Source: Hormiphora californensis
Lineage: Eukaryota > Animalia > Ctenophora
Direction: 5' to 3'
Assembly (NCBI GenBank): GCA_020137815.1
Contig: CM035354.1
Coordinates: 5,022,001 to 5,086,000, forward strand
Length of the DNA stretch: 64,000 nt
Shown here: one piece after another, positions 17,301 through 29,300 of the stretch
Layout of the letters: each line of letters opens with the position of its first letter
Position numbering within the stretch: the stretch's first letter is position 1
Notes under the pieces: model-generated
What the model saw: only the letters and a program-made list of their open reading frames with translations
The model's database searches: none
What the model was told of the DNA's origin: nothing
Program-made: the position numbers and the translations under genes

Positions 17301-20300
17301 AGACAGTCTTAGGAAAAATTAAACTATAAATATGAAAGTTTTAGGAATAATTAAAGTCTCGGGAATATCAAAGTTGGTTCCTTCTAATATCAGCTGAGAT
17401 GGAGAACAGGAAATTGTCGTTATAACGATTAGAGTAGTTTTCTGGTTACACAACTTGGTTCCAAAATTGAGGGTTGGTTGGGAACGGCGTGCCCAGTGGC
17501 TCGGAGACTCTCAACGCGAGCAATTGTTATGTGGTTATAATCTGAAATATTTAGGGATTTAGGGATGGATAAAATTTTAATTTCCGTTTTTGGCAATGCA
17601 GAAACGTGGTTTAACGTCCACTGTTTCCCTGTGCGGGGCGCAGTGAAACAGAGTCGAACAAGGTAATACTGTTCCTATTAACAGTATGCAAACAGTATAC
17701 AACTTACCTTGACTAACACAGCTGCTACGTCGGAAGGTGCACAACCCACTACTCGACATGGCAACAGACTGGTTCCTTGTAGTGGGTTTCCGGCCGGGTG
17801 CCATCAGCTTGTGACTGAACTTAAACCGGGACTTCAGCCTTGTCAGCCGGAATAACCTCCAGAACTTGAACTTCATTGCTAAACAAAGGGGGGGGGAGGT
17901 TAGTTGAGTAGCTTCTGAACTACTACTTGACAGAATCATCTAGCGTTAATACAGTTTTTCATCACTATATCACGTACATTAAGATAAGATATACACGGGG
18001 CTGAGTACGTCAAGCCCCGCCCGCGAATCAAATGTAAAGGGAGGGAATAAGAACATAACAAATTAACAACATAATGAGAGAGAAATAGGGATCAGTGGCG
18101 AAACACGCATCCTTTTTTGACAGCTCAAATCACTTCCCCTCTTCTTCTTCTCTTTGGCATGGCACAAGAGCTCACCAGGAATTTAGGAGGGGGAAGTTGC
18201 AGATGCTATATAATGAGTTTCACCAGTAAACCATTTCCAATACCCCCTTACAACTGCACTTCACGGACCAGTTCACAGAATGCTTACTAAACTATGTACT
18301 ACCTTTAACTGTCGCTAAACCACTTCCTCAACTACTTTCCTAAACTATTTCCACTTCTTTTTTCTGCAGGAGGTGGAGGGGTGGTTGACCCTACTGCGAC
18401 TGAACTAGATATACTACACATACCACAACTAATTGGAATACCAGAGGAAGCATCAGGACATGGTACGTGACTATAATGGCAAGCAGGTCGTGCCCCTTTT
18501 GTGCTGCAAAGCTTTTGTGTCATAAGCCCAAAACTAAAGCATTCGATAAAAAAACTTTGCCATATGTTGCGTTACATTACTTCGATAATTGGTAGCTATC
18601 TGATCTCACGATAACTTATAATAACTTCGGGGGGGGGCCTGCCGCAAAAATCTCAGCTACCCTCTTTTCGGCCGATGAGATTTTTGAGATTTTTGGGAAA
18701 ATTTGCTCAATTACGTTTGAGATTTTTGAGATTTTTGTGGTAAATTGGCAAAATTTTGGCTGCCAATACTCAGGTTTTTGACATATTTTTTAGCTTAAAA
18801 CTGAATCATAATAGCAGTTTAGTAATTTAAATAGGTAGATTTCATGTTTTAGCTTCGCATTAACTTTTGTACTAGAACACAAGGAAAATTTATATTCAGA
18901 ATTTTGATTTTTGGTAGAAAAACACAAGGATTGTTTCTATTCCAAATTTTTGAATGGAAATTTTTCCTTTCTATGAGATTTTTGAGAAAAATTTGCGGGT
19001 TTCCCCCGAAAAATCGCAAATTTGCCTCAAAAATCTCAAAAATCCCACGTTTTTTAGCCAAAAATCGAAAATCTCAAAAATCCCAGCTACCCCGAAAATC
19101 GCCAATGAGGCATGAGATTCTTGCGGCAGGCCCCCCCCCAACTTCAAAACAATTCATAATTTTACTGTTAAACACAACTACTGACCCTGGTTAGCTATCC
19201 CAGCAGGTGGTGGTAAAGAAGGACACGGACTAGGTAACACGACTCAGTGTGTCATGTGGAGCTAATGATGTTTTGATGATGTTTGTAACACGTGTCCGAC
19301 CTATACTGTGTGTGGAGCAATCATCAACACACCGTGTATAACATGTGGTAACAAAGTGGAGCAGTTTCAAGTTAGAGATCTAACCTTCTTTAGGAGCCAT
19401 GTGTGTGTTTTCTAATCTCCCAGATTAATTAACCCCACCCCTCCCTAAATTCTAAAACCCTCCCATCAAATTGTATCCGTGCTGTCTGTATCTGTCTGTT
19501 ATTAATGTCTACCAGCACTTCACAAAGCACGTTTCCATAGCCCCATATTAAAATTTAAAGCACATTATATTGGGGAACTATTGTGGAGCAAATATTAGCT
19601 AGTGAGGGGATTCTGGGGAGATACATGGAGCGTGTTTTAGAGATGCTAAACACCCAGCCCCTTCCACTCTAGTTGAAGGGGCGTGGTTTGGTAGCTGGAT
19701 AAACTAAACTCCCCCCTCCACTATCTAGACGGTAGCCACGCGGGAGTGTACCTAACTCAGCTGCTAAGGGATGGAGACTGGAGGAACGAGGATGTTCCAG
19801 TTTATGTTACCCCAGATGGGAGAGTCTTTATCAGCAGTGTCATTGTAAATCAACCTGTGTGTTCCAGTGATCGGGTCCGCTTTACGCAGCAGGTAATTTT
19901 ACTACTGGTATTGGTAGTTTGGATCCAAGCTACAGGTATTTACAGATGGCGAATTGGGCAGCCTTTTTAAAACAAATGTCAGAGTCTGAGGGATCCCTAT
20001 TGCTACACATGAATGATCCCCCACCCTCCCGACAGGATGATGCAGATGACGTTCACAGGAAACCAGAGGAGGGATCACTTACCTTCTCAGATGGCCAACT
20101 CAATGGGTGGATAAAGTTCAAGGGACAGGAGCCAGTCAGAATCAAGGGAAAACGATGGGGTAAGTATTATAGGGAGGTGATCTGGAGAGACAACACTATA
20201 AATCTTTCGGTATCAAGTCTTGTGGTATAGGTATTCAAACAGGGATTCAAACATGTTATACACATATTGTGTTAAAACATTTCCTGATTATACACAGATC

Positions 20301-26300: not shown

Positions 26301-29300
26301 CTGGGGAAATCAAACAAAACGGACAACTACGCTCCGAGATTAGCGGTTTCAAGTTTGGTAAGTCAGATGGGATGACATTTAATACACTTGCTGGTAAGTC
26401 TAGATCTAAAGTTTAATTAACTTAGTACTAGTAGTGGTTGTGGTAGTCTAGATCTAAAGTCTGAATGAGAACACCACTGCACTATATTTAGTAGTGGTGA
26501 AAAAGTAAAACAAACCAGGCAATAAACTGCTGAGAAGTAACTGTACAAAAATCCCCCTTTTTATACAACACCTCAGCAATGAGTTAAAGTCACATTCCGT
26601 TTTTCTCACGTACACTTGATAAAGACTTCTCTATCATGCGTAAAATAACTGGAACGTGGTTTCCAAGTGGTTTAATCATCGGTTACATAGTCTCACAACT
26701 AATGATGCTGACGTAAATCAAAGAAATTATATCTTACAGACGTCAAACCGGGGGTATACTTGCTGGAATCGCGACCCTTGGGTAGTGAGGGTGTGTGGAG
26801 TGGACTGAACCTCCAGATGTGTGTTACTGATAATGGACTCATCTCAGTTGGAGGTAGGATAATATTAGAGAAGGTGTGGGGTGTAAGAAGGGTTGAGAAC
26901 TATAAAAGTGAAAGAAAATTACTCTTAGAAGCATTAGTTCATTTGACTGGAGAGACAAATCCCAGACTCCTATAAGTTCCCTCTCTCCCCTTCCAGATAA
27001 GCCAGTTAGAGATTTGACAGCCGATCAGACGGAACAGCTTCTCTCCTGCACTACAGATACCCCCCTGGAATCTCTAGCAGTCAAATTCACCAATGATGGC
27101 GTCCTAGGAAATGGGACTCTTATAAACAATGAGGTACAACTATTATCACACTGATTATAGATACAAATGGTGAATCTTGAATGAAAAAACAAGAATTCAT
27201 GGAACTGGAAGTGGAGTCCCAGAAAACTCTTGTTTAAAGGGGGTTGAGTTTTCTTGGCAGCTAATTAGTCGGTTTGTCAATTTATTATGCCTTATTTGTA
27301 GAATTATATAACAAATAGGCGTACCTTGGTGATGCCAAAGAGATTAAATAAAGATTAGAATGGGATTATAATATAATATATCTCTAATATTTCTATATGT
27401 GTTTAAAACTCGCTCCTATTACCAGACAAAAGCAGAGGTAGAGGTTCGAGGTAGAACGTGGTGCCCCAAGATAGCAGGAACCTATGAAACTGAGCTGTTT
27501 AGTGGGAGTGGTTGGAAACCCGCCAAAAATCTGGAAATCACCCCTCAGGTACCTATAAACATTGTTTACATTTTCCTGAAAATCACAAATACACCTTGAG
27601 AACTTCGTGCATCATATTGCGTGATTTCTTATCTGAGATAACGCGTGATTTCTTATCTGACCCACCACGTGACATTGTTTCAGGGACATGTCTTCTACGG
27701 AGGAGCAAGGGCTGATGGAGTTAGTTTGGATACGGACACCATGGCCTTTGATTTCTGCTCCCCTTTGCAAGACGTAAGATAATGAAAGATAGAGATAAAC
27801 TGAGAAACAGAGATACAGATACAGGATCAAAGAGAGACAGAACTGGTAACCCAGAGAGACAAATTAGTATACATGTGACAATGACACCAACTGTAAAGTT
27901 CTCACAGGTCACGTTAGCATTTGATGCCAACGGGTTCTCTGGTAATGCAGTTACCATGAGTGATCAGAAGACACGTGTTATGAGAGGCAGGAGGGTTGGA
28001 ACTAGACCAGTCTCAGCAAACCATGCAACTGATCTACAATTCGGTAAGGTTCTTCAGAAAGCATGGGTTCGTAATCAATACTGAGGAGTAGCGCGTTCAC
28101 TAGGGTATGACAAATATGTATGACAAATACTTCAAAGAATATAATATTCTGAATATCAAAATTCACCCCTTCTCTCTCAGCGTCCTCAGAGGGTGAGGAA
28201 GAAGATAGCTTTGATGAATTAAACGAACAGATTGGCTCTAAAATTACGACACCACTAGAAGATCAAGATTCCTCTAACCTGGCTCTACCACCAGCACCGG
28301 CTGGGGTAACCAGTGACTATGGGAGTGCAAGTGATCTGATAGCGAGTGAAGCAATGACTGGACCGCAACATCCGGGTACCGATATAATGAGCTCCCTGGA
28401 GGAAGGTAGTAGCACACTGGGAAGCAGGTCACTCCTCAACTCAGCAGGAGAGAAGGGTGGCATGCCTTCTAGTCGGGGATTTGAGGGGGATCAGGGAAGG
28501 AGGAGGAGTGATGGAGAGGGTAGAAGAAGGAGTGAAGGAGAGGGGAAGAAGCCTGGAAGTGGTGGTTCTACAAAGAAATCAGGGGGTGAACAACACTCTA
28601 AAATCTCACCAGGTAAAAAGAAAATGAGCTCAATTATATATGTCAAGATATGAGTTTATCATGACGAATCGTAGCCTGACAAAGAAATGTACCACGGTCA
28701 AATTAAATTCGTGATTCAAATTCGTGATTAATGTTCGTGACCTTGCAAGAAATCTCGACATTTTTAGATCCATTAAGTAGCACGTTCATGATCTCCATTC
28801 CCCCTCTAAAGTACAGCTCTCTCTCTCTCTCCCTCTCTCCCTCTCTCTCTCTCTCTCTCTCTCTCTCTCTCTCTCTCTCTCTCTCTCTCTCTCTCTCTCT
28901 CTCTCTCTCTCTCTCTCTCTCTCTCTCTCTCTCTCCTCTCTCTCTCTCTCTCTCTCTCTCTCTCTCTCTCTCTCTCTCTCTCTCTCTCTCTCTCTCTCTC
29001 TCTCTCTCTCTCTCTCTCTCTCTCTCCATGATCTAGATGACGTCAGTCTGGAGGAGATTGGTTTTGAGTTAGGAGGGGAAGATGCCGCTTCAGAGAATGG
29101 TGACGTCATAGGGCCCTCATTTGAGACATGGCCCCCAGAATCAGATCAAGGGAAGGGATCTCTTGACTCTGTCCGGTCTAATAGTGACGATACAGGTACA
29201 TCTCGGCTCTAGCTGGGCCCAGCTGGGTATTGAGTGAGTTGTTCGTGTGAATCGTGAGCCTTGATGAATTTCTGTGCAGATTTGAAACGATTCAGCAAAC

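Follow-up and report, generated by a model that had tools for sequence, protein, structure and literature searches.

The ctenophore Hormiphora californensis carries a gene encoding eight tandem copies of a small, divergent domain, located in a 64,000-nucleotide stretch of contig CM035354.1 (GenBank assembly GCA_020137815.1, positions 5,022,001 to 5,086,000 of the forward strand). This whole stretch is referred to here as the window, and coordinates are counted from its first letter. The modeled gene extends from 18370 to 33471 on the forward strand and comprises 35 exons; all introns are of the GT-AG type, and the spliced exons form a single frame of 1,624 codons with one terminal stop. Downstream of the array the gene encodes a Ser/Gly/Pro/Lys-rich linker, a Glu/Arg-rich charged helix, and a conserved tail. 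An earlier note, made from the DNA letters alone, had described the repeats as an unrecognized beta-rich domain in a KIAA2012-like gene. We find the array to be genuine; it represents a variant within a known fold family and stands outside the OAA lectins proper. Sequence comparison shows the ctenophore domain to be a homologue of a rare OAA-lectin offshoot of bacteria, minus the residues of the sugar site.

The start and end motifs that the earlier note had listed for the eight repeats are all present where it had placed them, and its description of a tandem array of divergent copies holds. When each window repeat was scored with a hidden Markov model (HMM) of the other seven repeat pairs, taken from the window and from the ctenophore Mnemiopsis leidyi, it received between 25.3 and 49.7 bits, far above 500 shuffles per repeat, none of which reached the score (top shuffle, 8.8 bits). 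All eight repeats are also found in Mnemiopsis. Pairwise identity among the window repeats is 15-28%, and their length is 88-106 amino acids (aa), except for repeat 4, which reaches 152 aa owing to an insert. No further copy of the domain was found within the window.

Repeat 1 (19731 to 20158; exons 19729-19892 and 20036-20159) is the best-conserved copy, 81% identical to its Mnemiopsis counterpart, and the one nearest to the bacterial-type domain described below. Repeat 2 (20300 to 21276; 28.4 bits in the leave-one-out comparison) is distributed over exons 20298-20429, 20561-20634, 20928-21017 and the start of the exon at 21253, and repeat 3 (21280 to 21665; 48.8 bits) is encoded by exons 21253-21426 and 21534-21666. 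Repeat 4 (21858 to 24767; 41.2 bits) occupies exons 21856-21918, 23666-23797, 24348-24436 and 24594-24768; its insert amounts to about 60 aa, and exon 24348-24436 matches Mnemiopsis at 62%. Both this extra exon and the donor at 23797 are supported by the Mnemiopsis protein, which corrects the exon count of the array from the 18 first proposed to 19. Repeat 5 (25196 to 25468; 42.5 bits) is a single exon, 25194-25469, lying between phase-1 introns, and repeat 6 (25707 to 26356; 29.5 bits) is formed by exons 25699-25802 and 26180-26357. Repeat 7 (26740 to 27461; exons 26740-26853, 26997-27133 and the start of 27426; 32.2 bits) shows the lowest conservation, at 35% identity to Mnemiopsis, and repeat 8 (27465 to 27997; exons 27426-27548, 27684-27773 and 27908-28043; 25.3 bits) is 67% identical. 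The first loop of repeat 2 (20298-20429; P0003) contains an acidic insert in both species, which in Mnemiopsis takes the form of a 7-residue tandem repeat.

Phase-1 introns stand before repeat 1, at five of the seven internal boundaries and after repeat 8, as had been reported. Those that follow repeats 1, 3, 4, 5 and 6 each lie one base past the last aromatic codon of the repeat, and the one past repeat 8 lies 15 codons downstream; the boundaries between repeats 2 and 3 and between repeats 7 and 8 are intronless. Introns of the same phase are found at the same position at both unit ends, the arrangement of a 1-1 module, and repeat 5 is itself one 1-1 exon. Within the repeats, intron positions differ from copy to copy. 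This combination of shared boundary introns and differing internal ones agrees with a history in which a unit bordered by introns was duplicated in tandem and further introns were gained separately afterwards. Of the exon shuffling that had been proposed for the array, duplication of a 1-1 unit is consistent with the introns; movement between genes would be a further, hypothetical step. When 28 repeats were placed in one tree, all 8 window repeats paired as sisters with the Mnemiopsis repeat of the same number, and the array is therefore older than the split between the two species and has not been homogenized.

With the last exon (33187-33471) as query, the sole relative among longer proteins was a Mnemiopsis leidyi hypothetical protein of 1,741 aa, 77% identical to it. 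Three more named isoform models complete the set (KAL5260743-6), which is colinear with the window gene; a tblastn search with the Mnemiopsis protein matches successive window exons between 19719 and 33465, and the four models place array and tail in one protein. Identity between the species is 35-81% in the repeat segments. Used as a query in a word-index search, the Mnemiopsis repeat region matched itself only. The exon joins of the window gene are partly supported by RNA. A contig from run X1, about 99% identical, directly joins four introns of the charged-helix and tail region. Another, from run X2, is less than 90% alike and therefore likely derives from a related species; it spans exon 20036-20159 and carries, in its loose ends, coding sequence for the end of the preceding exon and the start of the next (two joints), and 11 of the 12 differences listed fall in third codon positions. 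No contig from these two runs bridges the repeats to the tail. Most repeat exons lack RNA cover, which is uninformative either way; array and tail are joined on the evidence of an uninterrupted frame and of the gene model from Mnemiopsis. An intronless contig, likely from a third ctenophore, carries the 3' part of this gene (L001:178-1515), with the coil and tail 62-65% identical.

A profile from 11 exon pieces, searched against 1.84 billion representative proteins, gave 49 matches, six of which were also matched by BLAST to the ctenophore proteins. Four of the six are fragments 52-89% identical and likely ctenophore; the other two are P0022, with three tandem copies (E 1.6e-7), and P0052, with one C-terminal copy (E 7.2e-4). 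The remaining matches were dropped as summed noise: 43 of the 49 lacked a BLAST match, 42 had no domain above 10 bits with a 16-repeat HMM, and the six long ones that were scanned are all DUF7507/DUF11 repeat proteins. A search with P0022 led to P0060, P0061, P0062 and one named gene, in Sphingomonas sp. ST-64 (L003:4001-4951), which encodes three copies, lies on a 546-kb contig and has a third-codon-position G+C content (GC3) of 0.85. The domain is rare. It was found in one of 401 genomes sampled by phylum and in one of 401 sampled by family, the same known genome both times; no relatives were found in plasmids, phages or viral contigs, and a first genome scan gave none in 68 stretches.

In the reverse direction, an HMM of 12 bacterial-type repeats (two more had escaped the search pattern, and four near-identical proteins were excluded) gives repeat 1 a score of 50.6 bits in the window and 56.4 bits in Mnemiopsis, and window repeat 3 one of 22.2 bits; 10 of the 16 ctenophore repeats lie above all 300 shuffles. 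Profile-profile alignment of the ctenophore and bacterial-type repeats with hhalign gave a probability of 91.8 and E 7.3e-7 over 70 columns. In the tree of 28 repeats, the bacterial-type repeats form one side of a branch with support of 99/96, and repeat 1 joins them at only 87/81. The bacterial-type domain (Sphingomonas sp. ST-64, P0022, P0060, P0061, P0057 and P0062) has the same length and register as the ctenophore repeats, aligns nearly without gaps to repeat 1, and shares with the array a G-x-Y start, a Trp, a Phe-x-Gly and an Arg-Gly end. Unlike the ctenophore array, it occurs in one or three copies in small proteins. A frame with LysM matches, at least 1,331 aa long, ends four bases inside the three-barrel gene of Sphingomonas sp. 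ST-64 (L003:9-4951), an overlap suggesting that the two form one operon. P0057/P0052 and P0062-P0065 carry a single barrel copy at the end of two unrelated metagenomic protein types, one of which has a helical front part with a hydrophobic stretch (hydropathy 2.19); by analogy, this terminal placement resembles that of a detachable binding domain.

It is through these relatives that the domain is tied to the OAA-family (OAAH) lectins. The three-copy proteins P0022, P0060 and P0061 and the Sphingomonas protein pass the Pfam family PF17882 with 39-55 bits (cut-off 20), and the single-copy bacterial-type proteins fall below that cut-off, at 19.5, 18.3 and 10.9 bits. PF17882 does not match the ctenophore proteins P0001 and P0002 or single repeat exons; Pfam and NCBIfam as a whole gave no match for the ctenophore proteins, and NCBIfam gave none for the bacterial-type domain. 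The resemblance to OAA lectins that had been suspected for the repeats thus holds by way of transitive homology, from the ctenophore profile to P0022 and from P0022 to PF17882, and not for the ctenophore repeats taken by themselves. When one Sphingomonas repeat was compared with PDB sequences, the sole match was the Myxococcus hemagglutinin (MBHA; E 0.073), in which WGG and GEGP align with YGG and GEGP of the repeat. Profiles A3 and A4 and P0022 retrieved no OAA chains from the PDB sequences. A match to a grappling-hook protein in the PDB (E 1.3e-5) was set aside as summed noise, its best domain scoring 5.7 bits.

According to the available text of PMC8166773, the glycan contacts of OAA lectins are W10, G11, G12, R95, E123, G124 and P125, and one site is formed by the first and last segments of the chain. 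Among 12 bacterial-type repeats, the aromatic residue at W10 is kept in 10, G11 in 12, G12 in 10, R95 in 11, E123 in 12, G124 in 12 and P125 in 6. The corresponding counts among 16 ctenophore repeats are 0, 4, 8, 1, 1, 4 and 3; the alignment column taken for R95 is one that we infer. No ctenophore repeat matches more than three of the seven positions, and such partial matches as exist are not the same in the two species. Multivalent binding had been offered as a possible function for the array; for sugars it is disfavored by the disappearance of these residues, and the ctenophore repeats are likely no longer lectins.

A structural model is available for repeat 5. AlphaFold2, supplied with a 21-row alignment, predicts its fold with a predicted local distance difference test score (pLDDT) of 86 and a predicted template modeling score (pTM) of 0.76; of the nine segments assigned by DSSP, two are likely parts of a single bulged strand. 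The best shape match is Cap15 (Z 9.8, root-mean-square deviation (rmsd) 2.7, 84 residues aligned), and the top matches, which cover almost the full length of the model, are eight-stranded up-and-down barrels that include, besides Cap15, a domain of quinohemoprotein amine dehydrogenase, the cathepsin C exclusion domain, NHBA/fHbp and streptavidin (Z 8-9.8, rmsd 2.3-3.6, 79-89 residues). At 6-13% identity and with no sequence link, these matches indicate a common architecture rather than demonstrated kinship. The confident model and its matches support the small beta-barrel that had been predicted, and one repeat appears to form one barrel, in line with the copy numbers of one and three in the relatives. 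A likeness to streptavidin or lipocalins, also raised earlier, is seen in shape (avidin-family chains, Z 7-8, rmsd 2.3-2.6) but not in sequence (4-13% identity, no Pfam or PDB sequence match). Foldseek gave no match at E 0.001 or better in the PDB or among viral models, and no OAA chain is among the matches listed. The ESM Atlas returned unnamed phage and beta-helix clusters for repeat 5, with low recognition and few common features, and these were not used.

Among the OAA lectins of PF17882, also named SBD (OAA, PTL, MBHA 4FBR/4FBV and BOA 4GU8), the fold is an antiparallel barrel like that of the repeat 5 model, and the bacterial-type relatives can be aligned to its first and last hairpins, where the WGG and GEGP motifs of the site are matched as well. 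The model superimposes on residues 2-133 of MBHA, a whole two-repeat barrel (Z 6.1, rmsd 2.4, 68 aligned), and on residues 142-274 of BOA, likewise a whole two-repeat barrel (Z 7.0, rmsd 3.4, 74 aligned), with 19% identity, the highest in that list. In the available text of PMC8166773, the OAA barrel is described as ten strands built from two 66-aa repeats, with two sites. In contrast, a single ctenophore repeat of about 92 aa is predicted to form one eight-stranded barrel, and eight copies, rather than two or four of about 66 aa, follow one another within a large modular animal protein, without the site residues and without a PF17882 match.

The linker (about 480 aa, 28181 to 31259, forward strand) is likely disordered, as judged by its composition, and is 47% identical to Mnemiopsis over the aligned positions. 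The Glu/Arg-rich segment (about 200 aa, 31532 to 33300, forward strand; E 26%, R 22%, A 14%, K 10%) is 75% identical and probably forms a single alpha-helix or a coiled coil; one further candidate relative, L002, was rejected as a chance match through the coil alone. The last exon (33187 to 33471, forward strand) ends the protein with the conserved aromatic tail motif that the earlier note had called KIAA2012-like. A likeness to vertebrate KIAA2012 would lie in the overall layout (a long disordered part, a Glu/Arg-rich helix and a short aromatic tail); no tool confirmed it. The Pfam family of KIAA2012 is presumably DUF4670. Pfam gave no match for the whole proteins, for coil and tail, or for the tail alone, where biased composition and distance can mask one; the ESM Atlas returned nothing over 0.80 for the tail, and the repeat profile returned no recognizable KIAA2012 protein. 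To our knowledge, no barrel array occurs in KIAA2012. The portions available of a Beroe paper supplement (PMC11184263) and of a preprint on CTENO189 (10.1101/2022.03.27.486007) do not name KIAA2012. In humans, KIAA2012 resides in motile cilia and has no function assigned to it, according to the available text of PMC12772120.

The modeled protein contains no membrane segment, its highest 19-residue hydropathy being 1.24, and none of the four models examined begins with a hydrophobic leader. Long charged helices are typical of intracellular proteins. From these features the protein is likely an intracellular scaffold consisting of a chain of beads, a probably disordered linker, a Glu/Arg helix and a conserved tail, and it is possibly ciliary. 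The gene may extend further 5' than the Mnemiopsis models do. Candidate exons at 11400-11500, 14640-14770 and 14964-15075 (forward strand; scores 17-23 under a model of codon use and splice sites fitted to this gene) chain in phase into the exon at 18370; they are hydrophilic and have no RNA cover and no Pfam match. Another candidate exon possibly lies at 9313-9876.

On balance, we lean toward the view that the eight predicted barrels derive from an OAA-related, likely bacterial domain, have lost the sugar site, and now constitute a structural bead chain or docking array on an intracellular protein. Several observations weigh against this view. The match of the bacterial-type domain to the Myxococcus hemagglutinin is weak, and Sphingomonas sp. 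ST-64 is the only named host of the domain. On the bacterial-type HMM, the scores of window repeats 2 and 7 are matched by 24 and 96 of 300 shuffles, respectively. The repeat tree is unrooted and carries no clade test, and it gives no direction of transfer. Nine of the 21 alignment rows behind the repeat 5 model are themselves bacterial-type, and an alignment-free model of the whole Mnemiopsis array was unusable (pLDDT 34). MBHA and BOA rank 43rd and 38th among the shape matches, beneath unrelated eight-stranded barrels, and Z values below 8 are common according to the warning of the tool; such values prove little alone, and OAA kinship rests on sequence. The search of 1.84 billion representatives missed the Mnemiopsis protein, which the profile scores at 279 bits, and eukaryote coverage of that set is thus incomplete. 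Finally, the four Mnemiopsis models have three differing starts, and this uncertainty at the 5' end makes an upstream signal peptide possible.

Because the OAA motifs are kept by the bacterial-type copies only, these copies look nearer to the ancestral state, and the OAA lectins have been described from bacteria and red algae (as far as the available text of PMC8166773 and PMC10655256 extends). Both facts speak against an account in which the domain, of ancient eukaryotic or pre-animal origin, was passed down vertically within its gene family and has been overlooked elsewhere through divergence, with the bacterial copies as cousins or recipients, as does the outcome that none of the 49 profile matches, most of them unnamed, is assignable to a non-ctenophore eukaryote. 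Vertical descent is a possible account, if a doubtful one, and it is favored by the incomplete eukaryote coverage, by the rarity of the domain in bacteria, and by the diversity of the ctenophore repeats, which exceeds that of the bacterial-type repeats gathered on one side of the 99/96 branch. Another account retains the lectin: the array would bind sugars through an altered site, either in a secreted or surface protein whose true N-terminus lies upstream or on cytosolic glycans. The homology to motif-bearing domains, the 81% conservation of repeat 1 with its loop lengths kept, the glycine pair, Arg and Asp-Gly near the site of window repeat 3, a displaced WGG in repeat 5, and the unsettled 5' end of the gene are in its favor. 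We nevertheless judge it decidedly unlikely, given that the aromatic residue is kept in none of the ctenophore repeats, that three matching site positions are the maximum and are not the same in the two species, that a hydrophobic leader is absent from the four models examined, that the candidate upstream exons are hydrophilic, and that the long charged helix is of an intracellular kind. That repeat exons and tail come from two different genes, or that KIAA2012 orthologues carry the array as a rule, is highly improbable: the whole gene is spanned by no RNA contig, but the frame is unbroken across 35 exons, array and tail are joined in four Mnemiopsis models, and no recognizable KIAA2012 protein answered to the repeat profile.

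If the preferred reading of a captured and remodeled bacterial domain is correct, the bacterial-type domain would have arisen, in bacteria, as an OAA barrel cut from ten to eight strands, keeping the one site formed by the first and last hairpins. An ancestor of the ctenophores would then have received one copy, likely bacterial in origin, which would have acquired phase-1 introns on both sides and been duplicated in tandem before the window species and Mnemiopsis separated. The protein, lacking a signal peptide or membrane segment in its modeled part, would be cytoplasmic or axonemal; high-mannose glycans are not normally encountered in those places, and the sugar site would have decayed there. 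The conserved tail and the long charged helix would anchor and space the protein, and the barrels, each conserved at its own position, could offer non-equivalent docking surfaces, repeat 1 being the most constrained. A bolder extension, which we think unlikely, is that a captured one-barrel bacterial lectin was amplified eightfold in an ancient KIAA2012-type ciliary protein and put to new use in the comb plate, spacing its axoneme or compartmenting lamella at regular intervals, with BLAST-based transfer screens blind to it. A horizontally acquired fold would, in that event, have been built into the signature organ of ctenophores. The comb-plate protein CTENO189 is likewise ctenophore-specific and of similar size; identity with it was rejected on domain content, as the available text of the bioRxiv preprint cited above gives it one metalloprotease and two death domains.

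These results connect a ctenophore protein that lacked annotation with a family of lectins known from bacteria and red algae, and suggest how a lectin barrel of ten strands and two repeats can be reduced to one of eight strands that stands alone. The bacterial-type proteins, with their mannose-site motifs, are candidate minimal lectins of 90 aa, and under the capture reading they would represent a bacterial branch of the OAA lectins, hitherto undescribed, with eight strands and one site. A transfer, if it took place, would be of a single domain and overlooked by whole-gene screens; a survey of transfers in Mnemiopsis confirmed nine, and the available main text does not mention lectins (PMC6005172). 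PF17882 is named in two papers, which concern red algae and cyanobacteria (available text of PMC10655256). We found no literature on KIAA2012 in ctenophores or on eight-stranded OAA homologues in animals, subscription journals being mostly outside the coverage. The array is a concrete candidate for the comb plate, where the lamella proteins are largely unknown.

The window contains several other features. Directly downstream of the gene, a single frame of 182 aa (34409-34957, forward strand) matches the Pfam family PF15874 (Il2rg) with 65 bits. Within the long intron of repeat 4, the segments 22039-22655 and 22733-23349 form an inverted repeat of 617 bp with 99% identity, likely a recent fold-back insertion or one of the miniature inverted-repeat transposable element type. 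Elsewhere in the gene, an intron element with short terminal inverted repeats was recognized by eye at about 18625-19142. On the reverse strand, two frames within 36717-41017, 428 and 1,065 aa long, resemble by eye an intact long interspersed nuclear element (LINE) retrotransposon, with a zinc finger in the first open reading frame and an endonuclease and reverse transcriptase in the second. Near the start of the window, at about 270-3860, inspection by eye revealed an array of a satellite of about 30 bp in both orientations, with inverted flanking arms of about 550 bp.

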